Below are positions 2,872-64,000 of a stretch of DNA of 64,000 nucleotides, in pieces (position 1 is the stretch's first letter; the number at the start of each line of letters is the position of its first letter). This stretch comes from an uncultured archaeon (GTDB lineage Archaea; Aenigmatarchaeota; Aenigmatarchaeia; CG10238-14; SCSR01), in assembly GCA_964512235.1 (NCBI GenBank), contig CAZEGD010000002.1:40768-104767 (forward strand). The letters are read 5' to 3'. The notes beneath the pieces are model-generated. The model was not told the DNA's origin, searched no databases, and saw only the letters and a list, made by a program, of their open reading frames with translations. A program made the translations under genes and the position numbers.

Positions 2872-2891
2872 ACAACTATAGATAAATAAAT

Positions 2892-2975
2892 ATGCACGGT
2901 GAAAAAAGAAAGAGACGGAGAAAAACAAAGATTCGAAGACGGAGAAGGATGAAGAGAAAATTGAAAAGAAAATAA
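2892..2975 (+). CDS. Tiny (27 aa) extremely basic peptide MHGEKRKRRRKTKIRRRRRMKRKLKRK; possibly ribosomal protein L41e-like
   Basis: Intact ATG..TAA ORF in a 413-bp intergenic gap; composition resembles eL41 (25-aa Arg/Lys peptide). Confidence 0.3.
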   Translation: MHGEKRKRRRKTKIRRRRRMKRKLKRK

Positions 2976-3082
2976 CTTGTTTTAATTGTTCAAAAATTAT
3001 TGAATTTTTTTTCGAACATAATTATTTCTAGAAAGTTATGATACATTTATATTTTGTCAAAATAAATTATTTTTAGATAAAA

Positions 3083-3187
3083 ATGGCAGCGAGAAGAAAG
3101 AAATCATCTTCGAGAAGTAAATCGAGAAGCTCATCGAGAAGTAGATCGAGATCGAAAAGCTCATCGAGAAGTAGACGCAGAAGATAA
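3083..3187 (+). CDS. Tiny (34 aa) Ser/Arg-repeat peptide MAARRKKSSSRSKSRSSSRSRSRSKSSSRSRRRR
   Basis: ATG..TAA ORF built from tandem DNA repeats (tcatcgagaagtagatcgag...); protamine/SR-like composition. Confidence 0.3.
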   Translation: MAARRKKSSSRSKSRSSSRSRSRSKSSSRSRRRR

Positions 3188-3285
3188 ATGGAAAGAACAT
3201 TGCAAATTCTTCGATTCTAATTAGTATTTTCTACATGCTTTAATAGTTTCTTGCATAAATGCTACAATAAATAATATAGAATATA

Positions 3286-9414: not shown

Positions 9415-9708
9415 TCAAGGAGAACTGACGAGTTGTGGAGTTTTCTCAAGTTTTTTCTTGTAGTTTTCCACACGTTTCTTTAACTCTGGGTCCTTTTCAA
9501 TCAATATGTTATAAAGGATTACAGCATCTTCTGAAGTCTTGAAAAGTTGGCCTTCGACTTCATTTTTAACATTTAGATAAAGATCCACTGCCTCGTCAAA
9601 TGGCAATACCGCGACCAGTTCTGGAGCGCCAGGGTTCTTCTTTCTGGCATACACATGCAACTTATCGCCAACGAACTTAGTCCAAACATCTAGGTTTGGG
9701 TTCTCCAT
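9415..9708 (-). CDS. Hypothetical protein (97 aa)
   Basis: ORF only; repeat copy E (9342..9395) lies just 3' of it. Confidence 0.4.
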   Translation of the reverse strand: MENPNLDVWTKFVGDKLHVYARKKNPGAPELVAVLPFDEAVDLYLNVKNEVEGQLFKTSEDAVILYNILIEKDPELKKRVENYKKKLEKTPQLVSSP

Positions 9709-9768
9709 AAAAACTTCTGCTGATTATGTTAATTTAAGCATTGTAGTGTTGCTTAACCAGTATCGGGT

Positions 9769-10065
9769 TTAGAGATTTTCTCTATGGAGCGATTCTCTGA
9801 CTTTTTCCAAATTTTTTTCAGCGTCTTCGTATGGATTTCTTTTCATAATCTTTACAGCTTCTTTCCCTTTCTGAGTTATGTGCAAATCGCCGTCTGTACC
9901 TATCTCAACATAAGGACCTAAAAGAAGTTCATCTAAAGCCTTTTTCACCCTAGTAGGATTATTCGGAAATTCGTTGTATATCTTATCTCTTGGCATAGAT
10001 TCTTTCTCACATATTAAACGTAGGATATATCCGATGGGGCTATTTGTCATTTTTCCACCAAACAA
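9769..10065 (-). CDS. Winged-helix transcription regulator-like protein
   Basis: PIGYILRLICEKESMPRDKIYNEF...LGPYVEI..DGDLHITQKG pattern. Confidence 0.45.
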   Translation of the reverse strand: MFGGKMTNSPIGYILRLICEKESMPRDKIYNEFPNNPTRVKKALDELLLGPYVEIGTDGDLHITQKGKEAVKIMKRNPYEDAEKNLEKVRESLHRENL

Positions 10066-10115
10066 ATTATAAAAGCGAGAGATTTAAATCTCACCCTACA
10101 TATACTTCAGAACTC

Positions 10116-10607
10116 TCACTTTTCCATCAGAAGCCCGTCTACATAGTCTATTTGGTCTTCCGGTTTTTCGTGTGATCTGACTAATTCTTCATAAATTTGT
10201 CTGACCCGATGCACATTGTCGCTGTCTATCCAGTATATACGTCCTGCGCGCTCTTTTTCAACTTCTCCGTATCCAGAAGTGATAATACCCCGATCTCCTA
10301 AAACATCTAATGATGACGATATTTCATTTCTTTCAATTAAACCCTCGAAATAGTCTACAAGTCTTGTAAATGTAGCGGGTATTTTAGTCATGTTGTATTT
10401 GTAAATCTGTACGGCTATCTTCAGATAATTATCTAGACTTTCCATAGCATTTGGGTCTGCTTTTTTGAATTCTTTGTTCTGATTCTTTAATGGGAGTGGA
10501 ACTTCAGGTATGTCTGACCCAATTAAGAAAAGTTCTTTTGGTTTCGGAAGCAAAATATCACCTAGAATAAATATAGAGTTTAAACTTTTATATTCGGTAT
10601 ACGCCAC
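10116..10607 (-). CDS. Hypothetical protein (163 aa)
   Basis: ORF; its stop codon is embedded in repeat copy F (10111..10130). Confidence 0.45.
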   Translation of the reverse strand: MAYTEYKSLNSIFILGDILLPKPKELFLIGSDIPEVPLPLKNQNKEFKKADPNAMESLDNYLKIAVQIYKYNMTKIPATFTRLVDYFEGLIERNEISSSLDVLGDRGIITSGYGEVEKERAGRIYWIDSDNVHRVRQIYEELVRSHEKPEDQIDYVDGLLMEK

Positions 10608-10623
10608 ATTGGCTTATTCTAGT

Positions 10624-10920
10624 CTATCCTGCATACACTTCTTTACTCTCACTCTTCACTTCTTTTGGCAGGAAGAAAAGGCCACCATGCAATAGAATTG
10701 CATAAAGGATTATCCTCATGAAGTCTGGAGATTCCATCTTTTTTATCTTTTTTAGGTAGGTTGATACTGTATTCCTGGATATGCCAAGCATTTCCGCTAT
10801 TTCTAGGTTGTTGTAGCCTCTTGCGTTTAATATTATTATCTCTTTTAGCATTATTGGTTTGAAGCCGTATCTCTTTGCTAGTGTGTTGAATAGCTGGTTT
10901 AGGTATCTTTCTATCTTCAT
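10624..10920 (-). CDS. HTH_10 (bacterio-opsin-activator-type) helix-turn-helix protein with a C-terminal TM segment
   Basis: GYNNLEIAEMLGISRNTVSTYLKKI HTH; hydrophobic segment IILYAILLHGGLFFL. Confidence 0.5.
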   Translation of the reverse strand: MKIERYLNQLFNTLAKRYGFKPIMLKEIIILNARGYNNLEIAEMLGISRNTVSTYLKKIKKMESPDFMRIILYAILLHGGLFFLPKEVKSESKEVYAG

Positions 10921-10964
10921 GTTAAATATTGTGCATTTTGCATATATTTAAACTATTTACATAA

Positions 10965-11177
10965 TTAAAAAATAAATACATGAAGGAAAAGAAAAATAAA
11001 GATCAGTCCTATCAAAATAAGTTCAATCAATACTAGTTTCGTTAATTCTTGTATTTCCATAGTAATCTGGGGAATACCAAAAATTGCTCCGATGATTAAG
11101 AAAAATACAGTTAAGGCTCCGAAGAAAATCGCAATTTTCTGTTCTGTAGTATATTTCTCTTTTTTATTAATTTTCAT
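10965..11177 (-). CDS. Small membrane protein (70 aa)
   Basis: Two hydrophobic helices; start overlaps the upstream gene. Confidence 0.4.
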   Translation of the reverse strand: MKINKKEKYTTEQKIAIFFGALTVFFLIIGAIFGIPQITMEIQELTKLVLIELILIGLIFIFLFLHVFIF

Positions 11178-11380
11178 CGACTCAACCTCGATATTATGCC
11201 AATAATTATCGAAATTATCATCGCTACTATTACGAAGAAGAATAGTAATGAATAACCTGGTGCCAGTTCTGTTAATATTGGACCTAAAGCATAGGTAATA
11301 ATGATAATTATAAAAATTGTAAGTAGAGCTTCAAAAACAAATGAAATTATATTTTGTCCTTTATTCTTCATATTTACCAT
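11174..11380 (-). CDS. Small membrane protein (68 aa)
   Basis: Two hydrophobic helices; 4-nt overlap with the downstream gene. Confidence 0.4.
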   Translation of the reverse strand: MVNMKNKGQNIISFVFEALLTIFIIIIITYALGPILTELAPGYSLLFFFVIVAMIISIIIGIISRLSR

Positions 11381-11464
11381 CTTACTTCACAAAAATAAAT
11401 AGTTTGATAATTCCTCAATCTTTATTAATCTTCTGATTAAATTCTGTAATTAGATAGATTTTTC

Positions 11465-12433
11465 TTAACTAGAAAATGTTACATCAAAAACTTTCACTTC
11501 TATTAGAGGATTTGCAGCTGCAGCATATTCAAGATAAGTATCTTTCTTACCAACAACAATTATACCTCTAACTCCTTTACCCTCTTTCTCGGCCATATGT
11601 TTTTTTATCCAACCCATATATCTCGATATCTGGTCTATTATTGAAGAACCAGCTTTTGATTTTTTCAATTCAACAACAACATAATCTGCATTACTACATA
11701 ATAAATCGAGTCTTCCAACATCGGTAACTTTCTGCCTAGCGACTACTTTAAGATGTGGGTCTAACTTATGGATGTTTTGCTCTATGATGGTCTCTAAATT
11801 CCTTTCAAGGATTTCTGTGTAGCCTATCTGCCTACTAACTTTTTCTTTTATTATTTCTTTTTTATCGTCTTCTTTGATATCCGACTTTATCTCAACCCAC
11901 CTTCCCTCTTCGAGGTAATTCAAGAATTCGTCTATCGACCCAAATTTTTCTACCAAAGGCGTTAATCTATCTCCGCTTATTTGCATAAAGCCTTGTGGAG
12001 TATAGTTAGGTGCATAACCTACAACTTTATTGAAATCTGAAACAGGAACCGATAGTTCTCTTAGATTATCAAGAAGGTACATATATTCCCAAGTTTGTCC
12101 AGAGGAGTCCGTACTCCATAAAAATTTAGCTAATTCAAGATTATGTATTTTGTGTACGACGGTAGCAATATATTCGTAATTCCCCTTTCTATAAATCAGA
12201 ATTTTATCATTGACTTCTAGGTTGCGCCAATTTCGTATGTTTCCACTTCCAGGTGTGGCTCCCCATGCCCTTATTTTTCTATCGCGGAAATAATCTTCCA
12301 CATCTTTCAAATCATTCTCTGATAGAAATTGTTTTATTTTATTATCTAAAGTGAATCCTTCTTCTATTGTATCAATATAATGTCTGTAAGCTTCGTCTCT
12401 ACTTGCTGTAAAAACGAATAATTTGGCGGTCAT
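11465..12433 (-). CDS. Nuclease with a NucS/EndoMS-type C-terminal RecB-like PD-(D/E)xK domain fused to a ~200-aa N-terminal PUA/EVE-like beta-barrel region
   Basis: C-terminal GRLDLLCSNADYVVVELKKSKAGSSIIDQISRYMGWIKKHM...GVRGIIVVG closely parallels the NucS C-terminal domain (IDLL..D..VVIELKRG.A...VGQLLRY.GWV...VRGILVA); the N-terminus is not NucS-like. Confidence 0.6.
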   Translation of the reverse strand: MTAKLFVFTASRDEAYRHYIDTIEEGFTLDNKIKQFLSENDLKDVEDYFRDRKIRAWGATPGSGNIRNWRNLEVNDKILIYRKGNYEYIATVVHKIHNLELAKFLWSTDSSGQTWEYMYLLDNLRELSVPVSDFNKVVGYAPNYTPQGFMQISGDRLTPLVEKFGSIDEFLNYLEEGRWVEIKSDIKEDDKKEIIKEKVSRQIGYTEILERNLETIIEQNIHKLDPHLKVVARQKVTDVGRLDLLCSNADYVVVELKKSKAGSSIIDQISRYMGWIKKHMAEKEGKGVRGIIVVGKKDTYLEYAAAANPLIEVKVFDVTFSS

Positions 12434-29582: not shown

Positions 29583-29709
29583 GCGGGGGTCGCCTAGTCT
29601 GGTCAATGGCGCGAGGCTTAAGTTTGACTACTTAAGATCTGATAAAATATGATGCAATAAGAAACCTCGTGGCTTAGTGCCTTCGTGGGTTCAAATCCCA
29701 CTCCCCGCA
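29583..29709 (+). tRNA. tRNA-Leu (anticodon UAA) with a ~41-nt intron after position 37 (approx. 29623..29663)
   Basis: Acceptor stem GCGGGGG/TCCCCGC; long variable arm GGCttagtGCC; anticodon loop CTTAAG|intron|A; intron contains ACTTAAG complementary to the loop (bulge-helix-bulge context). Confidence 0.85.
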
Positions 29710-52579: not shown

Positions 52580-55270
52580 ATGGAGACTCTCTTTCAGGTT
52601 CTAGATTCAGACTATATAATGGTAAACAACAAACCTGTGATCAGGTTGTTCGGAAAAGAAAAGAGCGGGAGGACAATATGTGCTTTCCTAGAAGGTGAAC
52701 TACCATATTTCTTTATTCTCGTGAACGATGAAGAAAAAGCAATAAAATTCATCGAAAAAGAGTTTTCAAACCTCGTTGTGAAAATAGATACAGTTAAAAA
52801 ATACCTTCCAATGGGGTTTCAGAAGACCAAAACAAAGCTGCTTAAAATAATATTGAAAGAGCCATCAAAGGTACCATCAATCCGCGATGAACTTAAAAAA
52901 AAGAAATTTGTAGATCAGATATTTGAGGCAGATATACTTTTCAAATATAGGATGATGGTCGACAAGGGTATACGTGGGATGGGTTGGGTAAAAGTTAAAG
53001 GTTCAGCAGTTAACACACACACTGTTAAAACAGATTGTTGCATACAGGCGAAAACACTGAACGTTGTAGATAATGAAGACAACGCACCATTGAGATACTT
53101 GAGTATAGACATCGAGACGCATTTTAGTGATGTAATTGGACCTAGCCCGAGAAAGGACAAAATTATAATGGTGAGTCTATATTTTTCTCCATCATACAGA
53201 GGTAAAGATTCGCTCGTCCTTATTTCGAAGAACACCAAGGACAACAAAGATACAATCTGTTGTGAAAACGAGAAGAAAATGTTGCAAGAATTCCTGAAGA
53301 TTGTAGATGCGTTTGACCCAGACATAATCCTCGGGTACAATATAAACAACTTCGACTTTCCATTCATTATGGACAGACTTAGGATAAACAACTTACCAAG
53401 AACCATGGGCAGATGCAACATAAAGAATGCTGTCTCAAGGAAGTTTGGCATGAGGTTTAGAAATTCAGTCACAGGTAGAGTAATAGTAGATGTATACGAA
53501 CTCATCAAAGAATCCGCTAGCAAAGGATTCATGAGAATGAAGAGGTATGGTCTTGGGGACGTATCTAAAAATCTGATAAACGAGGAAAAAATAAAGATTG
53601 CACATAGTGAAATTGTAAAATATTGGAACGGTGATGAAAAGCATCTGGAGAAGCTGATAGAATATTCAAGAAAGGACTCATACCTAGCCATGAAGTTATT
53701 GTTGGAAAAAGAACTGTTGGATAAATTTTTCGAGCTTTCTAAGGTCTCGGGCATACTCTTGCAGGATGTATTGTCGAGTGGTGAAGCTATGCGCGTGGAA
53801 AATTTGGTTTTGGAAGAATTTAACAAGAGAGATTATGTGATACCATGCAAACCAGATAATGCAGAAATGGAGAGGAGGAGTGTCGAAAGAGAAAAGAAAG
53901 CGCTAAAAGGAGCTCTTGTACTCGAACCGGATGCAGGTCTGCATACAACACCTATAGTCTATCTTGATTTCAAGAGCATGTACCCATCTATAATTATTTC
54001 ATATAATATTTGCCCGACTACTTTCCTACAACCTAACCAGAAACCAAAATCAATCAAAACACCATACAACACTAGATTTACAGACAGGACTGTGAAAGAA
54101 GGCATACTACCCAAAATACTCACAGACTTGATAAAAACAAGGGATGTCGTAAAAAAAGAGATTAAAAGGACTAAGAGCGAAGAAAAGAAGAAAAGTTTGG
54201 ACGCTAAACAATATGCACTAAAAGTTATGGCTAATGCCTTTTATGGCTATACCGGATACGTACGTGCTAGGCTCTATGTTTTAGACATAGCAAACACTAT
54301 AACAGCATCTGGACGCTATCTTATCCAAAAGACAAGAGACATAGTTGAAGAAGGGTCAAAATACAAAGTTGTATACGGTGATACAGATTCGATAATGGTA
54401 AAGGTAGGTGTCGAAGATTTGGAGGAAGCATTCAAAATCGGTAGAGAGATTGAGAAAAAAATAAATGATGAATTGAAAGGTATAGTGGAAATGAAAATAG
54501 AGTCCGTCTTCAAGTCCTTAGTGATACTGACGAAAAAAAGATATGCAGGAATGAGCTATGAAAAATATGATGGTGAATGGAAAGAAAAAATGATGATGAA
54601 AGGTATAGAGACTGTCAGAAGGGACTGGTGCGATCTTGTCAGTGAGACATTGTTCACTGTCTTGGAAATTATACTAAAAGAACAGAACCCCAAAAAAGCC
54701 CTTAATCATGTGAAAAGTGTTATGGCCAAGTTGCAAAGGAACGAAGTCCCAGTGGAAAAGCTAGTTATAACGAAGAGCATGACAAAACCTATAAGGTCGT
54801 ACAAAGGAATACAGCCACATATAGAACTCGTTAAAAAATTGAGAAAGCGTTCTCCAACAGAAGCTCCTGGAGTGGGTGACAGAATAGGCTATGTAATAGT
54901 CCAAGGATTACAAATAATTTCTAATAGGTCAGAAGACCCCGATTATATTAAAGCGCACAATATGAAAGTAGATTCTAAATATTACATGGAAAGCCAGTTG
55001 CTACCGCCACTTGAAAGGTTGTTTGAAGTTATCGGAATTGACAAGACTGAGCTTCTGGGCAGAGGCAAGCAGCTACTGCTTGGCGATGCAATAAAAAATG
55101 GAAGAAACAAGAAAATTGTAGACTCTTTGAGCAAATCAGATGGTGTTATATGTAGCAAGTGTAATAAAACGTTTAGGCGCCCCCCACTTTCAGGTAAGTG
55201 TACAACATGTAGCGGAGAGATATTATTCTTTTCTGGAAATGTTAGGTCAAAACACTTCAGTCCATCCTAA
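52580..55270 (+). CDS. polB: Family B DNA polymerase with intact exonuclease and polymerase motifs and a C-terminal Cys4 zinc-finger module
   Basis: Exo I YLSIDIET, Exo II YNINNFDFPF, Exo III YSRKDSYLA; Pol A DFKSMYPSII, Pol B KVMANAFYGYTG, Pol C YGDTDS; C-terminal CSKCNKTFRRPPLSGKCTTCSG. Confidence 0.93.
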   Translation: METLFQVLDSDYIMVNNKPVIRLFGKEKSGRTICAFLEGELPYFFILVNDEEKAIKFIEKEFSNLVVKIDTVKKYLPMGFQKTKTKLLKIILKEPSKVPSIRDELKKKKFVDQIFEADILFKYRMMVDKGIRGMGWVKVKGSAVNTHTVKTDCCIQAKTLNVVDNEDNAPLRYLSIDIETHFSDVIGPSPRKDKIIMVSLYFSPSYRGKDSLVLISKNTKDNKDTICCENEKKMLQEFLKIVDAFDPDIILGYNINNFDFPFIMDRLRINNLPRTMGRCNIKNAVSRKFGMRFRNSVTGRVIVDVYELIKESASKGFMRMKRYGLGDVSKNLINEEKIKIAHSEIVKYWNGDEKHLEKLIEYSRKDSYLAMKLLLEKELLDKFFELSKVSGILLQDVLSSGEAMRVENLVLEEFNKRDYVIPCKPDNAEMERRSVEREKKALKGALVLEPDAGLHTTPIVYLDFKSMYPSIIISYNICPTTFLQPNQKPKSIKTPYNTRFTDRTVKEGILPKILTDLIKTRDVVKKEIKRTKSEEKKKSLDAKQYALKVMANAFYGYTGYVRARLYVLDIANTITASGRYLIQKTRDIVEEGSKYKVVYGDTDSIMVKVGVEDLEEAFKIGREIEKKINDELKGIVEMKIESVFKSLVILTKKRYAGMSYEKYDGEWKEKMMMKGIETVRRDWCDLVSETLFTVLEIILKEQNPKKALNHVKSVMAKLQRNEVPVEKLVITKSMTKPIRSYKGIQPHIELVKKLRKRSPTEAPGVGDRIGYVIVQGLQIISNRSEDPDYIKAHNMKVDSKYYMESQLLPPLERLFEVIGIDKTELLGRGKQLLLGDAIKNGRNKKIVDSLSKSDGVICSKCNKTFRRPPLSGKCTTCSGEILFFSGNVRSKHFSPS

Positions 55271-56819
55271 GGGATTTGTAGAAGGGATTCGTTAAAATAC
55301 GATTCAGTATAATACCTAATATCAATGCTATTCCCAAACCTCTCAAAGGCGTAAACAGCGTAATAAAACCAACTACAGAAGCAACTATAATTAACTTCTT
55401 CATTGTTTTTCCTTTCCTACCGCTTTTTGAAAGTGTAATCATATCAAACATACCAATTGCCAAAAACATACACACACCAATCAATGCATATGTATCAATG
55501 ACCCATGATGTAAAGTTTTGTATTATTGCAAAAATACCAAAAACATAAACGACTTCCAAAATAGTCATTACAATCATAACTACACTTACTTTCACCTTTT
55601 TCCTAGAAACGAGAATGGCTGTAAGCGACAAAAACGCTACAGCAAAAGGTACCATCCATATCAGCCACCAGTTAGTTGGTTGAGTTCTGACAGTCGTTTC
55701 TATTTCGAATTTCGATGGAAGTTCCCCAGCTATTGCAAAACCCACAGAAGTCTTCTTAGTTACAACATCATTCATACTGTTTCCAAACCCAACAATAAAA
55801 GCCGTGCTTATGTTTTGTCCAGCTTGCTCTACTAGTATTGGTATTCCAATACCGTTTATCTTCTTTCCATCAACATAATACTCCCACACACCATTCAAGA
55901 AAGTCTGCGGTCCCAATAAAACTGTACTAAGTCCATTGCTTATCTTTCCAAATTTTTCTCCAGACTCTCTATCAATTTCAACTGGGGATGTTGATCTGTA
56001 TAGATTTACTGACGGTTCGAATGATACACTGTCAGCACCCTCAATTTCACCAATTATGTTATCATTATCAAAAATTAAAGAGTTCAAAACCAATGAGGTA
56101 TTCGTACCATTTACAAAGACAAATTTTACATTTTCCAAATAGAACTCTCCACCAACTTCAATTTCACTTCCATTAACAATTATAATACCGTTCAAAAATC
56201 CTATAGAATATCTAGAACTACCTATTTTTACTTCACTATTGCCATTTCTAACTTCAAGTGTCTGCCTTATTACACCTTCTATCCTACCCTTCTTTATCAA
56301 TAGACCCAAGTTCTTGTTTGGCGATGACGATATGATAAATTTTTCATTTTCCACTTCGACTGTACCATCGATTATTCCCAGAGCCGCCATACGCGACTGT
56401 ATTATTTCTTTCGTTTCTTGCAGTTCACTCTCAGATAGCATAGTATCAGGTACAACAGTCATTTCAACTCCACCACCTATCGACCTCTCAAATCTGAGGC
56501 CAGAAGATACCATATCAGTCACACCCACCACAATATCACCATCTGATAGAGCTGTGCACCCGCCAGGACCATTATTGACGACCATCGGATAATATCTATC
56601 TCTTTCGACGCCGGATACAAAATTGTTGAACTCTTCAGCACTCTTGACTACTTTACCACCTATCTGCGTTATCACGTCACCTTCTGAAAGGTCACCACAA
56701 CCATCATTTCTGACAGAAGTAACAACTACACCACTCTTTCTAAAGGCCAAAGGAGACAAAACAAAGAAAATTGAGACAGCGAGCAGTATGAGAATAAAAT
56801 AAAATCTAAGTCCTTTCAT
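55257..56819 (-). CDS. Membrane protein with an N-terminal signal anchor, PDZ-like extracellular domains and a C-terminal multi-TM region
   Basis: GDLSEGDVITQIGGKVV and SDGDIVVGV PDZ-like segments; ~5 C-terminal TM helices. Confidence 0.55.
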   Translation of the reverse strand: MKGLRFYFILILLAVSIFFVLSPLAFRKSGVVVTSVRNDGCGDLSEGDVITQIGGKVVKSAEEFNNFVSGVERDRYYPMVVNNGPGGCTALSDGDIVVGVTDMVSSGLRFERSIGGGVEMTVVPDTMLSESELQETKEIIQSRMAALGIIDGTVEVENEKFIISSSPNKNLGLLIKKGRIEGVIRQTLEVRNGNSEVKIGSSRYSIGFLNGIIIVNGSEIEVGGEFYLENVKFVFVNGTNTSLVLNSLIFDNDNIIGEIEGADSVSFEPSVNLYRSTSPVEIDRESGEKFGKISNGLSTVLLGPQTFLNGVWEYYVDGKKINGIGIPILVEQAGQNISTAFIVGFGNSMNDVVTKKTSVGFAIAGELPSKFEIETTVRTQPTNWWLIWMVPFAVAFLSLTAILVSRKKVKVSVVMIVMTILEVVYVFGIFAIIQNFTSWVIDTYALIGVCMFLAIGMFDMITLSKSGRKGKTMKKLIIVASVVGFITLFTPLRGLGIALILGIILNRILTNPFYKSLRMD

Positions 56820-56912
56820 TAAATATCACTATCTATTTTACACTGTCGTAACATTTATAACCTTTTATTATAGTTAAAATATAAGAAAGTTACATTTTAG
56901 TAGTTTGTCTAG

Positions 56913-57809
56913 ATGATGGTGAAACAATTGAAAGTTAGCATAATTGGAAGCGGTGTTGTCGGGACGATAGCTGGGAAGGGACTGTCTGAAATAGGTAATG
57001 ATGTAGTATTCTACGATGTTAACAAGAAGAGAATAGAAGAGCTTAAAAATGAAGGATTCAATGCAACGGATAATATATCAGAATCTGTAAAATCGACAGA
57101 TATATCATTCTTATGCGTGCCATCACCGAGCCCAGAAGGCAACATCGACTTAAGTTATATAAAATCTGCATCTACGGAAATAGCTAAGGTGTTAAAAGAT
57201 AAAGATTCGTACCATCTCATCGTTGTTAAAAGCACAGTCGTGCCAGAGACAACAGAAAATTTTGTTAAACAGATTATTGAAGATGTGTCAGGGAAGAAAT
57301 GTGGAGAAGGATTCGGACTTTGTATGAACCCGGAATTCCTGACTGAAATACACAAGTCATGGACTGATGACCCATCTCTAGAAAGGGGCTTCTTTACTGA
57401 AGACAGGATTGTCATCGGCGAATTTGACAAAAAATCTGGCGACATACTTGAATCACTGTACAAGTCACTTAACATTCCAATATTTAGAACTGACTTGAAG
57501 ACTGCTGAATTGATAAAATATGCATGTAATTGTTGCTTGGCTAGTAGGATATCTTATTGGAATGAAATCTTTTACATAGCTCAAAAACTTGGCATAGATT
57601 CTGAATTTGTTGCTAAAGTGGCAGCTATGGACAAAAGAATAGGAAAATATGGATCTGTTCATGGTATGGCGTTCGGTGGTAAATGCTTTCCAAAAGACTT
57701 GCGCGCGATTATTGCTTTTTCTGAAAGTTTAGGTCACAATCCAGAATTCTTGAAAGCCGTGGAAAATATAAACGAAAGAATTAAAAAAGACAAAGGAGTT
57801 AGAGAATAA
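56913..57809 (+). CDS. Nucleotide-sugar dehydrogenase family protein (UDP-glucose/GDP-mannose dehydrogenase-like) lacking the C-terminal nucleotide-sugar-binding domain
   Basis: N-terminal Rossmann VSIIGSGVVG; NPEFLTE; catalytic GGKCFPKD; 298 aa versus ~430 typical. Confidence 0.65.
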   Translation: MMVKQLKVSIIGSGVVGTIAGKGLSEIGNDVVFYDVNKKRIEELKNEGFNATDNISESVKSTDISFLCVPSPSPEGNIDLSYIKSASTEIAKVLKDKDSYHLIVVKSTVVPETTENFVKQIIEDVSGKKCGEGFGLCMNPEFLTEIHKSWTDDPSLERGFFTEDRIVIGEFDKKSGDILESLYKSLNIPIFRTDLKTAELIKYACNCCLASRISYWNEIFYIAQKLGIDSEFVAKVAAMDKRIGKYGSVHGMAFGGKCFPKDLRAIIAFSESLGHNPEFLKAVENINERIKKDKGVRE

Positions 57810-57822
57810 AGAGGTTGATTGA

Positions 57823-58644
57823 ATGAAAGCAATAATTCTTGCAGCGGGTAAGGGTACAAGGCTCAGACCTCTAACGTATGGAATACCCAAGCCATTATTG
57901 CCAGTGAAAGGAAGGCCAATGGTTGATTGGGTTATAAGAAGTACGTTGAACGATAAAATAGATGAAATTATAGTTGCGGTATCGGGTACAGTAGGTAATG
58001 ATATGGAAGAGAGGGTACTGTCGCATATCCATGGTATATGCATAGACGCATTTTTGCGAAAATTGGATTACAATTGCAAGATAAGGACCATACCAACTCT
58101 TCAGAGAGAGACTGGTGGAGACTTAAAATACATTTTAGAAGAATCTGGTATAAAGGGAAGCGTACTAGTTGCATACGGTGATAATCTAACACTTTTTGAT
58201 TTGGATAAAATGATTGACTATCATAACAGGTGTAAAGAGAAGCTAGGCACAGTCTGCACTGTGTTGCTATTTGAAGCGCCTGAATCAGAGCTGCACAGAT
58301 TCGGTATTGCAAAATTGAAGAAAGTGGAAGGTTTTGATTTAATAGAAGAGTTTGTGGAAAAGCCAGATTTAGAAAAGGCAACGTCAAGATTTGCAAGTGG
58401 TGGATACTATATAATTGAAATAGAAGATGTGATTGACAGGTTGCCTAAAGAGAAGAAGAAAGTCGAACACTCATTATTTCCAGCGCTTGCGAAAGAAGGC
58501 AAGCTAGCTGCATTCGTCAGTAAGCTTCCATATTGGATAGACATAAGCACAATGGAATCTTATGACATGGCGAATAAGATGGCTCACGACAATCTTATAT
58601 TACCGCCACCGCTGCCGGAAAACAGTAACAATAAACAACCCTGA
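57823..58644 (+). CDS. Sugar-phosphate nucleotidyltransferase (glucose-1-phosphate thymidylyl/uridylyltransferase-like)
   Basis: ILAAGKGTRLRPLTYGIPKPLLPV signature. Confidence 0.8.
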   Translation: MKAIILAAGKGTRLRPLTYGIPKPLLPVKGRPMVDWVIRSTLNDKIDEIIVAVSGTVGNDMEERVLSHIHGICIDAFLRKLDYNCKIRTIPTLQRETGGDLKYILEESGIKGSVLVAYGDNLTLFDLDKMIDYHNRCKEKLGTVCTVLLFEAPESELHRFGIAKLKKVEGFDLIEEFVEKPDLEKATSRFASGGYYIIEIEDVIDRLPKEKKKVEHSLFPALAKEGKLAAFVSKLPYWIDISTMESYDMANKMAHDNLILPPPLPENSNNKQP

Positions 58645-58677
58645 GTCCAATAATAATTAACAAACTCACAACTAATT

Positions 58678-59448
58678 TTGAGGATTTTGATGAAAAAACT
58701 AAAAGATAGAGTTGCAATAGTTACAGGGGCAGGTCAAGGTATAGGCAAAGGAATAGTACTAGAACTTGCAAAAGAAGGTGCAAAGGTAGTCGTTTCAGAT
58801 ATAAACGAAAAGACTATGAATGAGACAGTTGAAGAGATTAAAAAATTGGGGGCAGAAGCGATTGGAGTAAAGGCAGATGTGGCAAATTCGGCAGAAGTCG
58901 AGGAAATAGTTAAAAGAACTCTGGAGCAATTTGGAAGAGTAGATATATTAGTTAATAATGCTGGTATTTGCAAAACTTCTCAAGTTACAGATATGAGTGA
59001 AGATGAGTGGGACAAAGTACTCGCAATAAATTTAAAGGGAGTCTTTTTATGTTCTAAAACGGTACTTCCAAAAATGGTAGAACAAAAATACGGGAAAATA
59101 ATTAACATCACTTCTATAGCCGGAGCTAAAATTGCTTGGCCAAAAATTGGTCACTATGTTGCATCGAAAGCCGGTATAATTGGACTAACAAGAAACTTAG
59201 CACTTGATTACAGCCGGTACGGAATTAATGTAAATGCAGTTGCGCCCGGCGCTATAGAAACAGCGATGCTAGATAGTGTGTTGAAAGACTTGGGTATGAC
59301 GAGAGAGCAGGTTATACAAGGAATTCCACTTGGCAGAATTGGGCAACCAGAGGATATAGCAAAGGTAGTTGCGTTCTTGGCATCGGATGATTCAAGCTAC
59401 ATAACAGGACAAACAATAATTACAGACGGTGGCTATACAATTCAATAG
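58678..59448 (+). CDS. Short-chain dehydrogenase/reductase (FabG-like)
   Basis: [10 protein letters not shown]; NNAG; catalytic YVASKAG. Confidence 0.8.
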
Positions 59449-59457
59449 GTAGGTCAA

Positions 59458-60453
59458 ATGAAAATTCTAGTAACAGGCGGAGCCGGATTTATGGGGTCTT
59501 GGCTAGTGGACGAACTCATCAGCCGCGGCCACAAAGTCGTTAGCGTTGACGATCTAAGCGGCGGATTCATGCGTAACGTAAGCAAAAAATGCAAATTCAT
59601 CAAAATGGATCTACGCAACACCAAGAAAGTTTTCAAAGTCACAAAAGGAGTTGATATAATATTTCACCTTGCTGCATATGCAGCAGAAGGCCAGTCTGTG
59701 TTCTCACCGATAGAAATAAACGACATAAACATAAAGCCGATGAACAATCTACTCGTAGCGGCCGTGAACAATGGTATCAAGAAGTTCATTTTCACTTCTT
59801 CCATGGCAGTCTATGGTGACCAGAAGCCACCATTCAATGAAAAGATGGCTAGAATGCCGGAAGACCCATACGGCTGCGGTAAATCATACTGTGAGCGTAT
59901 GCTTGAAATTTTTGCAGAGACATATGGATTTAATTATACTATCGTAAGGCCACACAATGTGTACGGACCAAGGCAGAATATATCAGATCCTTACAGAAAT
60001 GTGCTAGGCATATGGATAAATAGGATCATGCGAAGAAAGCCACCACTCATCTATGGCGACGGAAAACAAACTAGAGCATTTTCTTACATAGAAGATGTCA
60101 CACCACCGCTTGCAAATGTTGGGTTCTTTAGGAAGGCAAACGGCCAGATAATAAACTTGGGCAGCGATGAAGTGATGACTATAAATAAAGCATGCAGAGT
60201 CGTACTGGATAAAATGGACAGTAAATTAAAGCCAAAGCATGTAGAGTCAAGACCATGTGAAGTGAAGCACGCACATTGCACAATCAAAAAATCTCAAAAG
60301 ATTTTGGGGTACAGGACAAAGCATAAACTGAAAGATGGGATAAAGAAAATGGTAGAATGGGCTAGAAAGACCGGCCCGCAGAAGCCAACCTACAGGTTGC
60401 CATTGGAGATAACAAAAAGAGCGCCAAAAGTATGGTATAAAAAAATGATTTAA
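59458..60453 (+). CDS. NAD-dependent nucleotide-sugar epimerase/dehydratase (extended SDR)
   Basis: VTGGAGFMGSWLV; catalytic YGCGK; 331 aa. Confidence 0.8.
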   Translation: MKILVTGGAGFMGSWLVDELISRGHKVVSVDDLSGGFMRNVSKKCKFIKMDLRNTKKVFKVTKGVDIIFHLAAYAAEGQSVFSPIEINDINIKPMNNLLVAAVNNGIKKFIFTSSMAVYGDQKPPFNEKMARMPEDPYGCGKSYCERMLEIFAETYGFNYTIVRPHNVYGPRQNISDPYRNVLGIWINRIMRRKPPLIYGDGKQTRAFSYIEDVTPPLANVGFFRKANGQIINLGSDEVMTINKACRVVLDKMDSKLKPKHVESRPCEVKHAHCTIKKSQKILGYRTKHKLKDGIKKMVEWARKTGPQKPTYRLPLEITKRAPKVWYKKMI

Positions 60454-61727
60454 TTTGTTTCTTTGACTACACCGACAGCTATTGTAACGCCACTATCTCT
60501 TATGAGTATTCTTCCCAATTGTGGGGTTTCAGTCTGCTTTTCTATCACAAAAGGCTCCGTAGCGACAAACTTTACAGTACCAGCATCGTCCATAGAAAGC
60601 ACTTTTACTTTTCCTCCGGAAACCTTTCCACTTCTAGGATCCATCTTGTTGATGATTTTTTCAGCCTTACATTGCACATTAGCTGTACCACACCTTATTA
60701 TATAATCTCTACCTTCTACGACTTCACCGTCATCTTCGAGTATGAATATCTCTGCACTGAACTCTTTGGAAACATTCGGCACATCTTTACCACTACTGAA
60801 TACATAACCGCGTTTGATTTCTGATATGCCGATGACTTTGATTCCAATATTCTCACCTGCTACAGCCCGCACCTTTTCTTTATTCCACATTTGTATCGAT
60901 TCAACAGTACCACGCTCCCCAGAAGGGCTAACAACTACTTCGTCGCCAACTTCTACTTTACCCAGTTCTACCCTTCCGACTATTACTCTCTCTCCTCCAA
61001 CCTCGTAAGAGTCTTGAACAGGTATCCTTAAAGGACTGTCTGCATAATTCTTTGGCTCAATTGTAAAATTGTCTAGGGCTTCAACTAATGTCGGCCCGTC
61101 ATACCATTCCATTCTTTCAGACTTCTTTAAGACATTGTCACCTTCCATGGCCGATACTGGAACGATTTGTACATTCTCTGTAACGTATCCCATAGATTCG
61201 AGCATATCCTTTATATCGGACGAAATTATGTAAAATATTTCCTTGTCATAATCTACAGTATCCATCTTGTTGACGGCAACGACAAGCCTGTCTATACCCA
61301 TCTCTTTTGCCAGCCATGCATGTTCTTTACTCTGGCTTTGCACACCTTCGCTAAGCTTTGCGGATACTACGAACATAGAGATTTCTCCATAAGACGCGCC
61401 GCTGATCATATTCTTTATGAACTCTTTATGCCCGGGGCAATCTATGAAGTTGTACAAATACTTTTCACTTTTAAACGGGACCTGTACAGTATCTATGGTC
61501 ATCGCCTCCTCCCGCTCTTCTTGAAAGGTATCAAGGATGAATGCATATTCAAACTTTTCTTTATTGAGTTTTTTGAGCACAGATTTTATTTCTTCCAACC
61601 TGTCAGGTTTCAGCTGTCCAGAGTCGTATATAATCCTACCTATGAGCGTAGATTTTCCATGGTCTATGTGACCTATTGCAACAATGTTTACGTTTGGTAG
61701 TTTATTTTTTTCCATCACAACCACCAA
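60450..61727 (-). CDS. cysN: Sulfate adenylyltransferase subunit 1-like GTPase (CysN-like EF-1alpha/EF-Tu paralog)
   Basis: G1 GHIDHGKSTLIGRII, G3 DCPGH, G4 VVAVNKMDTVDYDKEIF (closer to the CysN consensus than to EF-1alpha); sits in an operon with cysD. Confidence 0.7.
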   Translation of the reverse strand: MVVVMEKNKLPNVNIVAIGHIDHGKSTLIGRIIYDSGQLKPDRLEEIKSVLKKLNKEKFEYAFILDTFQEEREEAMTIDTVQVPFKSEKYLYNFIDCPGHKEFIKNMISGASYGEISMFVVSAKLSEGVQSQSKEHAWLAKEMGIDRLVVAVNKMDTVDYDKEIFYIISSDIKDMLESMGYVTENVQIVPVSAMEGDNVLKKSERMEWYDGPTLVEALDNFTIEPKNYADSPLRIPVQDSYEVGGERVIVGRVELGKVEVGDEVVVSPSGERGTVESIQMWNKEKVRAVAGENIGIKVIGISEIKRGYVFSSGKDVPNVSKEFSAEIFILEDDGEVVEGRDYIIRCGTANVQCKAEKIINKMDPRSGKVSGGKVKVLSMDDAGTVKFVATEPFVIEKQTETPQLGRILIRDSGVTIAVGVVKETN

Positions 61728-62445
61728 TTTGCGGAATTACACTGTAAAAATCTGTTATTTTTGGCATGTTGCCAAAACTGACTTCTCCACTCGATGACCA
61801 AAATCCATTCATAGTATGGTCTCCGTACCTACCTTCACCTATTCTTTCCATGCCATGGTCAGACACAATCAAAATTGGACAGTCATAATCTTCTGCAACT
61901 TTCCCGACAACGCTATCCAATTCTTCATAGACTTCTCTCATCTTTTCTTCTATCCCAAAACTTAAATGACCTACAGCATCTATAAGATCGAAATAAACCA
62001 TTACAACTTCGTAGTCCTTCTCATTCCCTAAGGTATCAAAAAATTCCTTCTTTATCTTTTCATGGTTCTCCCAAACAACTTTGTCAAATTCCTCGACTGT
62101 ATTCTCTTTTTTGAAATAACCAGCTAGGTATTTCCTCTCCATGGCATGCTCATCTTGTTTGAGAGTGAAAGCGGGAACGTCTATGGCCTTGAATGAGTTG
62201 AAGAACTTGAAGAAGGTACGTTCTTTGGGTAGGGTAAAATTCCATAAATCTTCTTTTATTTCATCTTCCATATTTTTTCCATTCAGGAAAGAGGACCAGA
62301 GCACTACTGTTTTTGGCAATTCGAACTCAGATATATCAGTCTGACCGTAATTTTTCTGCATCAAATTTTTACACTTAAACTTCTCTACCATTGATTTATC
62401 AAGTGCATCAATTCCAAATATTATCATCTTCAATTTTTTCACCAC
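61702..62445 (-). CDS. Alkaline-phosphatase-superfamily protein (type I phosphodiesterase/metalloenzyme-like), 247 aa
   Basis: IIFGIDALD N-terminal motif and ILIVSDHGME...GDHT metal-site motifs. Confidence 0.55.
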   Translation of the reverse strand: MVKKLKMIIFGIDALDKSMVEKFKCKNLMQKNYGQTDISEFELPKTVVLWSSFLNGKNMEDEIKEDLWNFTLPKERTFFKFFNSFKAIDVPAFTLKQDEHAMERKYLAGYFKKENTVEEFDKVVWENHEKIKKEFFDTLGNEKDYEVVMVYFDLIDAVGHLSFGIEEKMREVYEELDSVVGKVAEDYDCPILIVSDHGMERIGEGRYGDHTMNGFWSSSGEVSFGNMPKITDFYSVIPQIGGCDGKK

Positions 62446-62448
62446 CCT

Positions 62449-63282
62449 TTACATATAACCCAAACTTCTCAGCTTCTGCATGGCATATTCTCGTTCTTTA
62501 TCTTGTGCACGTCCTGAGCGTTCTGACACTATTGTAATTTTTAATTCTTCAATTATTTCATCTATAGTACTGGCATCAGAGTCTATAGGAACTGTACACG
62601 GCTGGCAACCAAGACTGCGGAACCTTTTGTGTTTCCATCCAAACTGTTGCTCAACAAACTTCGCAGAGTAAAGCTGGTTCCATGGCATATTCTCTCGCTT
62701 GACATATCTCCAACAGTCTAACTCCGTCCAATGCAATATTGGATGTACACGTACATGTGAAGCTTCCTTGAAAGTATGTTCGAACAAATCCCAGACTTCT
62801 GTAGGCTGGTTTTTATGTTGCCAGCGAAAGTCTTTGTCTCTCGGAGAAAAATAACGCTCTTTCGCACGAATACCATGTTCGTCCCTTCTAATAGAAACTA
62901 AAATAGCATCAAATCCTCTCTCATCTATAACCTTCTTTAGCACTTCCGTCTTCAATGTTGTGCAGCAAACATCTCTTCCCTTGTCGGGACCCATTCCATT
63001 TTCCAAAGCTTCTTTATTTTTTGCAACTATCAAATCCAAATTCCATTCTTTTGCCATCTTATCTCTGAATTCGTATATCTGCGGAAACTTACAGCCTGTG
63101 TCTATATGTATGACAGGAAACGGTATCTTCCCGAAAAACGCCTTTTTGCAAAGCCATAGACATACTGTAGAATCCTTGCCGGTAGACCACATCACGGCTG
63201 GATTTTTGAATTCAGCCACAGCTTCCCGTATGACGTATATACTTCTTTCTTCAAGTTTGTTCAAGTCGTTTAATGCTTCCAT
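62449..63282 (-). CDS. cysD: Sulfate adenylyltransferase subunit 2 (CysD, PAPS-reductase-like ATP pyrophosphatase)
   Basis: PP-loop WSTGKDSTV; PFPVIHIDTG; SIRRDEHGIRAKERYFSPRD; C-terminal FRSLGCQPCT...SERSGRAQDKE matches CysD. Confidence 0.8.
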   Translation of the reverse strand: MEALNDLNKLEERSIYVIREAVAEFKNPAVMWSTGKDSTVCLWLCKKAFFGKIPFPVIHIDTGCKFPQIYEFRDKMAKEWNLDLIVAKNKEALENGMGPDKGRDVCCTTLKTEVLKKVIDERGFDAILVSIRRDEHGIRAKERYFSPRDKDFRWQHKNQPTEVWDLFEHTFKEASHVRVHPILHWTELDCWRYVKRENMPWNQLYSAKFVEQQFGWKHKRFRSLGCQPCTVPIDSDASTIDEIIEELKITIVSERSGRAQDKEREYAMQKLRSLGYM

Positions 63283-63291
63283 TTTTTCACC

Positions 63292-64000
63292 TCATATAAC
63301 CATTTTGACAAGAGTCACTATACCTAAGACAGCGATGAATAATCCCACTATAAGCAAAGCCTTCTTTTCATTCATCTTAAAAGTTGTATACGATGCCGGT
63401 AAAGTCGCTAAGAAAGCTCCAAGTATAATGGGAATTGCTATATCCCAATTGAATGGCATGACTAAGCGGTAAAATAAGATTGCACTTAGGGACATTACTC
63501 CCTCTGCAAGTGTGGTTGATCCAATAGCTTTTTTTGGGTCTATACCTGAGAGCGAGAGACCACTTGTCGCGACAGGACCAAAACCACCTCCACTTATCGC
63601 TTTATTGAAACCACATAACGATCCTATTCCAATTATCTTTGACCAAGCGAATTTTCCTTTGAATTCACCCTTGAAATATTTTCTTATCATTAAAATACCA
63701 AGAACTAGAACTAAACTTCCAATATATGTCTTCAGTAACCATTTTGGTATGGACATAGCAACTGTAACACCAAGTAGACTACCCAATACTGCAAATATGG
63801 CTATTGCTATACCAATTTTTATATTAACATTTCCAAAGCCTTTATGAAGTACACCACCAGTAAAGCCAGTTATTGTTTCTGACAAAAGAATTATAGGAAT
63901 AATTTCCAACGGTGAATATCCCATGCTCATAAACAACGGAGTCAGAATAGTACCGTAACCACCTCCCAAGGCAGAGTCTATATATTCAAAAATAAATCCA
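63292..64000 (-). CDS. TauE/SafE (DUF81) family anion permease, 5' end beyond the window
   Basis: GGGYGTILTPLF glycine-rich TM1 motif repeated in the second half (GGGFGPV); frame is open to the window end. Confidence 0.7.
   Translation of the reverse strand, partial: GFIFEYIDSALGGGYGTILTPLFMSMGYSPLEIIPIILLSETITGFTGGVLHKGFGNVNIKIGIAIAIFAVLGSLLGVTVAMSIPKWLLKTYIGSLVLVLGILMIRKYFKGEFKGKFAWSKIIGIGSLCGFNKAISGGGFGPVATSGLSLSGIDPKKAIGSTTLAEGVMSLSAILFYRLVMPFNWDIAIPIILGAFLATLPASYTTFKMNEKKALLIVGLFIAVLGIVTLVKMVI

Follow-up and report, generated by a model that had tools for sequence, protein, structure and literature searches.

Introduction

In the bacterial sulfate-activation system CysD-CysN(-CysC), known from Escherichia coli (cysDNC), Pseudomonas syringae (structure 1ZUN) and Mycobacterium tuberculosis, the PP-loop protein CysD stands beside a GTPase of the EF-1alpha/EF-Tu family. 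In the published view, CysN arose from an archaeal EF-1alpha, and CysDN is a bacterial system that goes back to the transfer of this gene (PMC4342817). Here we describe a locus for predicted sulfate uptake and activation at the end of a 64,000 nt stretch of DNA from an uncultured archaeon of the Aenigmatarchaeota (contig CAZEGD010000002.1, positions 40,768 to 104,767; this whole stretch is called the window). Its minus strand carries genes for a TauE/SafE permease, an archaeal-type CysD, a small protein of the alkaline phosphatase (AlkP) superfamily and a GTPase derived from EF-1alpha.

Rhizobia possess NodP-NodQ, a second CysDN-CysC copy for the sulfation of Nod factors. NodQ carries the kinase for adenosine 5'-phosphosulfate (APS), and its product 3'-phosphoadenosine 5'-phosphosulfate (PAPS) serves as donor for the classical sulfotransferase NodH. 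From archaea, CysDN was reported for the methane-oxidizing groups ANME-1 and ANME-2b and was read as assimilatory (Yu et al. 2018, PMC6286981). Methanothermococcus thermolithotrophicus has an ATP sulfurylase, an APS kinase, a PAPS reductase and MtPAPP, a characterised phosphatase of the DHH family for 3'-phosphoadenosine 5'-phosphate (PAP) (PMC10322725). Assimilatory APS reductases of the CysH type hold a [4Fe-4S] cluster by the ligand motif CC...CxxC (PMC1175818).

Results and Discussion

A conserved triad of CysD, AlkP-like and GTPase genes

Genes were identified by a listing of open reading frames (ORFs) together with Pfam and NCBIfam profile scans (Table 1; other contigs and loci are given by L numbers). 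All eight genes that a preliminary description had named from the letters of the window were present, and the AlkP-family gene indeed occupied the place of cysC. A tblastn search with four APS kinases detected no APS kinase in the 64-kb window or in the loci with a CysD module (~0.85 Mb); the only match lay in L073, which holds a different type of operon. In comparison to bacterial CysDNC, the window module has neither a domain nor a gene for APS kinase and has a gene for an AlkP-fold protein inserted.

It had been stated that CysDN is uncommon in archaea, but this fails for uncultivated lineages. We found 514 homologues of the AlkP-like protein with about 230 amino acids (aa). When one genome of each GTDB species was scanned with a pattern, 50 species-level loci were obtained, mostly from Bathyarchaeia. 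Further carriers were Aenigmatarchaeota, Methanothrix harundinacea, Methanomicrobiales, Methanosarcinales, Hadarchaeota and a metagenome-assembled genome (MAG) of Thermoproteota labelled 'Kor1', together with a few bacterial MAGs (Saccharibacteria, Omnitrophota and others). ORFs were called in these loci and then matched to the window proteins; 25 loci had 3.5 kb or more of sequence on each flank. The AlkP-like gene was accompanied by CysD in 24 of these well-flanked loci (at a distance of 4 kb in one of them) and by the GTPase also in 24 of 25. TauE adjoined the module in seven, and also in ANME-1. The gene order was CysD-AlkP-GTPase in the window and in Bathyarchaeia and CysD-GTPase-AlkP in Methanothrix, Hadarchaeota, Saccharibacteria and others; in a locus from Syntropharchaeia, the class of ANME-1, a ribbon-helix-helix (RHH) gene is followed by TauE, CysD, the GTPase and the AlkP-like gene. 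Relatives of the window kept the triad at ~50-70% protein identity. The arrangement, which recurred in dozens of independent genomes, is far beyond chance. We concluded that the triad is a widespread archaeal module, predicted to activate sulfate and apparently undescribed.

Three loci harbored CysD and the AlkP-like gene with no GTPase within 8-10 kb (L065, 8887-10696; L066, 8338-10705; L072, 8234-9645). In these variants CysD retained its C-terminal tail and the four cysteines described below. Either CysD acts there without a G protein or it borrows another GTPase, for example, the housekeeping aEF-1alpha. In view of such loci, the linkage of the AlkP-like gene with CysD is no weaker than that of the GTPase. 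The locus suggests that the constant companion of archaeal CysD is an uncharacterised metalloenzyme and not an APS kinase.

Archaeal CysDN as such was already known from ANME, which share with the window the pairing of an archaeal CysD with an EF-1alpha-like CysN. The AlkP-fold partner and the CC...CxxC motif of CysD are apparently new. The words 'phosphodiesterase' and 'alkaline phosphatase' are absent from the main text of PMC6286981, which speaks of iron-sulfur clusters for APS/PAPS and sulfite reductases, not for CysD; further full-text literature searching, which was not exhaustive, revealed no description of an AlkP-like partner or of Fe-S features in CysD. The cysteine motif, the AlkP-like gene as a conserved part of the module and the RHH regulator are additions to the preliminary description.

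In some loci a PstS-family ABC transporter (TIGR02136, 102 bits, under the cut-off) took the place of TauE (L006, 4856-8359; L053, 3742-5360). This replacement raises the question of which anion enters.

CysD carries the cysteine motif of APS reductases

The window CysD is 40% identical to CysD of E. coli and matched 1ZUN_A with 226 bits over the full length except for one deletion. The curated CysD models were split: NF003587 was passed (Table 1), and TIGR02039 (263 bits, cut-off 397) and NF009214 (270 bits, cut-off 413) stayed under their cut-offs. The PP-loop, which reads SIGKDS in E. coli and is degenerate in APS and PAPS reductases, is intact. In a neighbour-joining (NJ) tree, the window CysD grouped with bacterial CysD against two APS reductases with 100% bootstrap support. 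By its PP-loop and this grouping, the CysD-like protein keeps the feature of an ATP sulfurylase that its first assignment called for.

Cys106-Cys107 and Cys226-x-x-Cys229 were invariant in 39 of 39 CysD proteins from archaeal modules, including that of the window. In the alignment, each of the four cysteines shares its column with a cysteine of the CC...CxxC motif of the [4Fe-4S] APS reductases, which belong to the same superfamily (PF01507). Each of the three bacterial CysD proteins compared (E. coli, Sinorhizobium meliloti, Streptomyces) lacks three of the four: E. coli and S. meliloti have H-T at the CC position, and one cysteine of the CxxC half is kept in each of the three. Archaeal CysD also lacks an insertion of ~30 residues present in bacterial CysD; a C-terminal end ...GY(F/M) is common to both. 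APS reductases have their catalytic cysteine in a C-terminal ECGLH tail. This tail is absent from the window CysD, which ends instead with the Cys-free ...LRSLGYM; in the alignment, this end stands opposite ...KECGLH of the APS reductases, in a region that is gap-rich and uncertain. Because the catalytic Cys tail is absent, we concluded that the window CysD is not a reductase.

The conserved motif suggests that archaeal CysD is probably an ATP sulfurylase subunit with a [4Fe-4S] cluster beside the sulfate site, and we infer that it is intermediate between APS reductases and bacterial CysD. A 216-aa CysD-like protein was observed in Hydrothermarchaeales (L072, 8995-9645), with 130 bits for the CysD model and 123 bits for the PAPS reductase model. 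It keeps the PP-loop, the four cysteines and an LGYW tail, was basal in the NJ tree, and may represent an evolutionary intermediate between reductases and CysD.

The GTPase branches with CysN

The GTPase comprises three EF-Tu-type domains with intact G1 (GHIDHGKST), G3 (DCPGH) and G4 (NKMD) motifs; G1 of bacterial CysN reads GSVDDGKST. Models for EF-1alpha scored 451 bits (NF008969, cut-off 502) and 414 bits (TIGR00483, cut-off 540), and models for CysN scored 287-295 bits (TIGR02034, 287 vs. 336; NF003478, 289 vs. 590). The protein is 47% identical to an EF-1alpha of Aenigmatarchaeota, the group with the closest named EF-1alpha relatives, 39-47% to canonical aEF-1alpha and 33% to E. coli CysN. 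The proposed identity as CysN was, therefore, not confirmed by the curated profiles, since the protein stayed under the cut-offs of both CysN and EF-1alpha, but was supported by its place in the tree.

This tree was built by NJ from 57 sequences, four of them bacterial CysN or NodQ, and was rooted on EF-Tu. All CysD-linked GTPases formed a clade with CysN of E. coli, Mesorhizobium and Streptomyces and with NodQ of S. meliloti (94% bootstrap), to which canonical aEF-1alpha did not belong. Within this clade, the GTPase of the window took a place in the basal, short-branch part. Bacterial CysN formed a long branch that was nested beside the archaeal group with the order CysD-GTPase-AlkP (95%). 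This topology agrees with the origin of CysN from an archaeal EF-1alpha (PMC4342817) and suggests that the recruitment of the GTPase to CysD took place within archaea. Together with the CysD motif, the position of the GTPases below bacterial CysN suggests a distinct and widespread archaeal version of CysDN.

The higher scores on EF-1alpha models, the best PDB matches (aEF-1alpha) and the label 'elongation factor 1-alpha' that JGI gives to homologues would also be expected if the gene encoded the translation factor aEF-1alpha of the organism or a duplicate of this factor and had come to lie next to CysD without functional meaning. We consider this very improbable. The protein misses both curated EF-1alpha cut-offs, its identity to canonical aEF-1alpha is low, it is linked to CysD and the AlkP-like gene in nearly all well-flanked loci, it falls into the clade with bacterial CysN, and its gene is not in a ribosomal-protein or str-operon setting. 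Moreover, one contig of Bathyarchaeota B63 (L010) encodes a module GTPase in addition to a canonical EF-1alpha, which makes the module GTPase a paralogue of EF-1alpha in this genome.

In annotation pipelines, the GTPase appears as 'elongation factor 1-alpha', whereas the AlkP-like protein is labelled 'hypothetical'. Because of such labels, this capacity may be overlooked or misinterpreted when the sulfur cycle of Bathyarchaeia, ANME-1, DPANN-like and other sediment archaea is reconstructed.

The AlkP-like protein and its possible function

The AlkP-like family showed 61% mean column identity among 35 sequences from several phyla. Invariant residues were D13, T46, N58, D156, H160, D196, H197 and H210 (numbering of the 247-aa ORF). 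By alignment, this set is a complete two-metal site of the type found in nucleotide pyrophosphatases/phosphodiesterases (NPPs) plus a predicted nucleophile, Thr46. An AlphaFold (AF2) model reached a pLDDT of 93.4. The best Foldseek matches were NPP1/4/5/6 and the NPP of Xanthomonas (probability 1.0, TMq ~0.5, identity 11-15%), and the motifs D156/H160 and D196/H197 align with metal ligands of NPP7. Sequence and profile searches of the family against the PDB gave no significant match; NPP7 was marginal (E = 0.18). While NPPs have at least 380 aa, the window protein is a bare core of ~235 aa without cap or insertions, and its N-terminus is not signal peptide-like.

A profile search of 1.84 billion cluster representatives returned only 677 relatives. 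None of these was a fusion of the AlkP-like domain, and the longest match had 382 aa. An insertion is present in a sister group of ~280 aa. In ANME-1 and Hydrothermarchaeales, CysD occurs with a second subfamily (254-265 aa) that has Ser at the aligned nucleophile position, as read from the sequences.

The following scheme predicts every enzymatic activity, the Fe-S cluster, the formation of a complex and the glycan target from homology, motifs, fold, conserved synteny and tree placement. TauE would import the sulfate anion. CysD, with its predicted Fe-S cluster, would adenylate sulfate with ATP to APS and pyrophosphate (PPi), and the EF-1alpha-derived GTPase would act as CysN, so that GTP hydrolysis drives the unfavourable formation of APS. 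The AlkP/NPP-fold enzyme would be the third catalytic partner, with a covalent mechanism that uses Zn and Thr46; its substrate would be a small, universal product of the pathway. The protein stays ~55-60% identical across phyla and contexts, which argues for such a universal substrate and against one particular glycan. For an archaeal-type operon of sulfate uptake and activation working by this mechanism as a whole, we regard the chances of being right and wrong as evenly balanced.

As to the reaction of the AlkP-like enzyme, our tentative suggestion is a nucleotide phosphoesterase for the removal of an inhibitory by-product, with a PAP phosphatase activity in analogy to CysQ or MtPAPP. We arrived at this from sister operons and bacterial operons in which a PAP phosphatase is encoded together with ATP sulfurylase. 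Phosphoesterase partners are found elsewhere in the form of an MtPAPP homologue with the ATP sulfurylase Sat in Thermoplasmata, of an AlkP-family protein with APS kinase, and of the S. meliloti cysD-nodQ-cysQ genes. In M. thermolithotrophicus, too, an unconventional archaeal phosphoesterase was found by gene context. That system differs from ours by a homo-oligomeric Sat in place of CysD and GTPase, by the DHH instead of the AlkP fold, and by a known APS kinase. The AlkP-like protein itself was rejected as a member of the CysQ or MtPAPP families due to its different fold, so that the PAP phosphatase role is proposed only by analogy. No homologue of CysQ or MtPAPP was detected by tblastn in the window or in the loci with a CysD-type module (~0.85 Mb). 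A role outside PAP, PPi or APS chemistry is rather unlikely in our view.

Several observations weigh against the scheme. A PAP phosphatase requires an APS kinase and a user of PAPS, and searches of the window and of the 10 kb around CysD-type modules turned up neither. Loci that lack the GTPase still pair the AlkP-like gene with CysD, as would be expected of a thermodynamic 'pull' enzyme rather than of one for clean-up. By structure, the protein comes closest to diesterases and pyrophosphatases (NPPs), not to monoesterases. In the ANME-1 locus of Syntropharchaeia, the module adjoins TusA and YeeE/YedE-type sulfur genes and not glycan genes. Finally, the CysD and GTPase trees are NJ trees only and include few bacterial sequences.

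Because no APS kinase is encoded nearby and pairs of CysD and AlkP-like genes without GTPase exist, we keep two further roles under consideration. In the first, the AlkP-like enzyme would consume APS directly and replace APS kinase: the sulfuryl group (or the phosphorus) of CysD-bound APS would be the target of Thr46, and the sulfate would be handed on to an acceptor. This would constitute PAPS-independent sulfation, in which APS kinase and, in some lineages, the GTPase are dispensable. The complementary distribution of the AlkP-like gene and cysC is in agreement with this, as are the GTPase-less pairs, the tightly packed or overlapping module genes and the very high conservation of the protein. 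No PAPS-type sulfotransferase family recurred among the 150 neighbour families or in the Pfam annotations of L001, L004, L065 and L066. Sulfuryl transfer from APS is strongly exergonic and could pull the reaction, and enzymes of the AlkP superfamily handle sulfate esters. On the other hand, we know of no precedent for an APS-dependent sulfotransferase on the AlkP fold. The protein lacks a cap, an acceptor-binding domain and fusions, and a glycan-specific transferase is unlikely to stay 55-60% identical across phyla and contexts that include the sulfur context of ANME-1. We, therefore, judge direct consumption of APS improbable. Even more speculative, and quite improbable, is an extension of it: the Fe-S CysD and the AlkP-fold enzyme would form a self-sufficient two-component system in which Thr46 accepts the sulfuryl group of enzyme-bound APS, giving sulfated metabolites or glycans independently of PAPS. 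This system would be ancestral to bacterial CysDN-CysC, and the GTPase would have been added later in archaea and then passed on to bacteria.

In the second role, the enzyme would be a dedicated inorganic pyrophosphatase that clears PPi at the active site of CysD and so pulls APS formation. ATP sulfurylases require fast removal of PPi, a universal substrate in line with the high conservation, and GTPase-less variants would require an extra pull. Some members of the family also carry the JGI label 'AlkP superfamily pyrophosphatase or phosphodiesterase'. Against this, a general cellular pyrophosphatase is usually enough, and hydrolysis of PPi alone overcomes neither the unfavourable equilibrium nor the product inhibition by APS. 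To our knowledge, no dedicated pyrophosphatase with an AlkP fold exists, and we regard this role as quite doubtful. Depending on its function, the AlkP-like protein would add a third non-homologous PAP phosphatase or pyrophosphatase or would reveal PAPS-independent sulfation.

More AlkP-superfamily proteins are recurrently encoded near the module (L006, 694-1911; L051, 11260-12654; L033, 2031-3014; L052, 3153-4373; L040, 10786-11634 and 19739-20584; L023, 6947-8356; L071, 1268-2887; L073, 2318-3751). Some of them are sulfatase-like, and in at least two of these, from L006 and L051, the Cys of the formylglycine (FGly) motif is replaced by Thr (TTPSVASILTG and WTYPSVASILTG). Others are Phosphodiest proteins of 470-540 aa, one of them in an operon with APS kinase. 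The same pathway may use these additional proteins as group transferases or hydrolases.

Predicted destination of the activated sulfate

The glycan neighbourhood of the module proved to be real and was kept in relatives of the window (L004, L005, L065, L066) at 50-70% protein identity. Glycan genes near the module in this lineage encode glycosyltransferases (GT2, GT4), a Wzx-like flippase, PMT, a UDP-glucose dehydrogenase (UGDH), an NTP-transferase and an epimerase. Over all loci, the commonest neighbour was an epimerase/dehydratase (22 loci), followed by the Wzx-like flippase and TauE (12 loci each), NTP-transferase (11), UGDH and GT4 (10 each) and GT2 (6). In the window organism, the activated sulfate most likely feeds the sulfation of a cell-envelope glycan made by the flanking sugar genes, a target that we favour with some reserve. 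It is proposed by analogy with NodPQ, where a sulfate-activation module also lies inside a glycan-modification cluster, and where the split between a housekeeping and a dedicated system is paralleled by a separate Sat and APS reductase in at least one related genome. Unlike NodPQ, the archaeal module has no kinase and no recurrent family of classical sulfotransferases nearby (none among 150 representative neighbour proteins, families with at least two members). The locus points to sulfated surface glycans in lineages without known glycan chemistry.

The glycan neighbourhood of the preliminary description holds; its analogy to sulfoquinovose does not. As a UDP-sulfoquinovose synthase (SQD1/Agl3), the epimerase had to be rejected, since it reached only 39 bits with NF041015 (cut-off 575). 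The sulfoquinovose pathway, moreover, requires sulfite and not APS. The best NCBIfam matches of the epimerase were LegB-like, RmlB and GalE, all under the cut-off.

The module could alternatively serve assimilatory sulfate reduction, supplying sulfite or sulfide for cysteine, with the glycan neighbourhood being incidental. The TusA and YeeE/YedE-type genes beside the ANME-1 module would fit this, as does the assimilatory interpretation of ANME CysDN (PMC6286981). In addition, a bathyarchaeial contig (L028) carries an Fe-S APS reductase and a Sat-type ATP sulfurylase (102-818 and 845-1936) ~8-9 kb from the module (9490-11937). This APS reductase has its own Sat gene alongside, however, so that two sulfate-activation systems are present in one genome; the separate pair suggests that the L028 module is not the assimilatory route. 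In the window region no sulfite reductase or APS reductase was found. The module of this lineage lies between conserved sugar genes on both sides, and epimerase, flippase, NTP-transferase, UGDH and glycosyltransferase are the commonest neighbours overall. An assimilatory function of the window module is, therefore, unlikely in our opinion.

An RHH protein and a shared C-terminal tail

A gene for a 70-aa RHH protein heads the operon just outside the window (Table 1). At least 687 proteins belong to its family, in which identity averages 67% across phyla, and they are annotated in the sources as Arc/MetJ/CopG regulators. In a structural model, an extended N-terminal segment leads into the helix-helix portion of an RHH topology, behind which an acidic linker connects to a C-terminal helix; the protein weakly matches the N-terminal region of NikR. 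The same family heads the Thermoplasmata operon of Sat and an MtPAPP homologue (8A8K, E = 2.5e-39), the Hydrothermarchaeales operon of an AlkP-like protein and the short CysD, and a euryarchaeote operon of a 477-aa AlkP-family protein and APS kinase. Because the family heads several sulfate operons, a regulator of sulfate activation is the simplest reading, and the small RHH protein is likely the regulator of the operon described here.

The last 18 residues of the RHH protein (...KEDEE.IKERLRALGY[MLI]) closely resemble the tail of CysD (...QDKE..YMMQKLR.LGYM). One to three small, RHH-like tail-bearing proteins of at least three sequence types are encoded in most module loci (small ORFs in most of L004-L057). 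A scan for the motif '(acidic run)..[IV]K.RL[RK].LGY[MIL]' gave 111 matches in the loci, duplicate copies included, of which 44 were assigned to CysD; there was one in the 64-kb window. The tail also ends a DUF2061 protein (L009), a sulfatase-like protein and two others (L024, 1-792; L041, 2-577; L048, 12519-12779).

We considered the tail as a mimic of the tail by which the ribosomal stalk protein aP1 binds aEF-1alpha. At the positions equivalent to K125/F129/R132, the window GTPase has K/W/K. The key residue K324 is Ser, but K324 is not kept in aEF-1alpha of A. pernix either. The idea is weakened because proteins of the RHH-tail type also head operons without any GTPase. A proteasome-docking HbYX motif was rejected, since Gly precedes Tyr and Tyr is often not the penultimate residue.

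Gene arrangement and other features of the window

Table 1. Features of the sulfate-activation locus and the adjoining sugar genes (window positions unless an L number is given).
Feature	Position	Strand	Evidence
Nucleotide-sugar 6-dehydrogenase, short form, 298 aa	56913-57809	+	PF03721 and PF00984, without C-terminal PF03720
Sugar-1-phosphate nucleotidyltransferase	57823-58644	+	PF00483 at 5e-30
Classical short-chain dehydrogenase/reductase (SDR; FabG/glucose-1-dehydrogenase-like)	58678-59448	+	PF13561, PF00106; NF005559 279 bits
Extended-SDR NAD-dependent sugar epimerase/dehydratase	59458-60453	+	PF01370 at 2.6e-52
EF-1alpha-derived GTPase, CysN-type	60450-61727	-	ORF 425 aa; PF00009, D2 and D3 domains
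Small AlkP/NPP-fold metalloenzyme, putative	61702-62445	-	ORF 247 aa; PF01663 40 bits (cut-off 23)
Archaeal-type CysD, predicted catalytic ATP sulfurylase subunit, 277 aa	62449-63282	-	NF003587 344 bits (cut-off 195)
CysD C-terminal tail ...QDKEREYAMQKLRSLGYM	62452-62505	-	...KLR.LGYM end kept in 44 module CysD
CysD Cys226-x-x-Cys229, CxxC half of CC...CxxC	62596-62607	-	Alignment
CysD Cys106-Cys107, CC half of CC...CxxC	62962-62967	-	Alignment
CysD PP-loop S33-T-G-K-D-S38, ATP pyrophosphatase motif	63169-63186	-	Alignment
TauE/SafE (TSUP) anion permease, presumed sulfate importer	63292-64000	-	PF01925 100.9 bits (cut-off 32.6)
RHH gene heading the operon, 70 aa	L001 4794-5006 (equivalent to ~64054-64266); L004 8209-8421; L065 8665-8877; L067 8164-8373		

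The sugar genes and the sulfate genes had been described as back-to-back. They do lie on opposite strands, but the two sets are convergent, not divergent, and their 3' ends share 4 nt (60450-60453). CysD and the AlkP-like gene are spaced by 3-21 nt, depending on the start chosen; according to the homologues, the AlkP-like protein starts at 62427 and has 241 aa. The 3' end of its gene overlaps the start of the GTPase gene, for which 421 aa from 61715 were called. The 5' end of TauE is beyond the window, with the true start at ~64038, ~40 nt past position 64000. This was seen from contig L001, on which the complete gene encodes 248-251 aa and which differs from the window in 1 base of 3551 and shows the DNA past the window end. 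On L001, the RHH gene precedes TauE, and farther out there are divergent genes for GT2, a methyltransferase, a full-length UGDH and an epimerase. From the gene content of the window and L001, the sulfate genes are bordered by sugar genes on both sides.

The full-length UGDH of L001 has 445 aa (1893-3230) and lies on the opposite side of the sulfate genes from the short dehydrogenase. The latter scored 245 bits with TIGR03026 (cut-off 190), but only model positions 2-297 of 413 were aligned. Short forms of 293-305 aa were also present in L004 (13930-14847) and L005 (6782-7663). The classical SDR was kept in these two ~70%-identical relatives, and the nucleotidyltransferase in L004, L005, L065 and L066.

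A scan of positions 56500-64000 for promoters and terminators gave no higher count than shuffled sequence; its model is bacterial, and the host is archaeal. Archaeal traits of the window include a family-B DNA polymerase (PolB) and archaeal best matches. An Rfam tRNA match of 127 nt (29583-29709) that was not called by ARAGORN is probably an intron-containing archaeal tRNA. Between PolB and the sugar genes, positions 55257-56819 encode a 520-aa membrane protein with weak PDZ and weak SecD matches, and L005 has an unannotated 503-aa ORF in the equivalent position.

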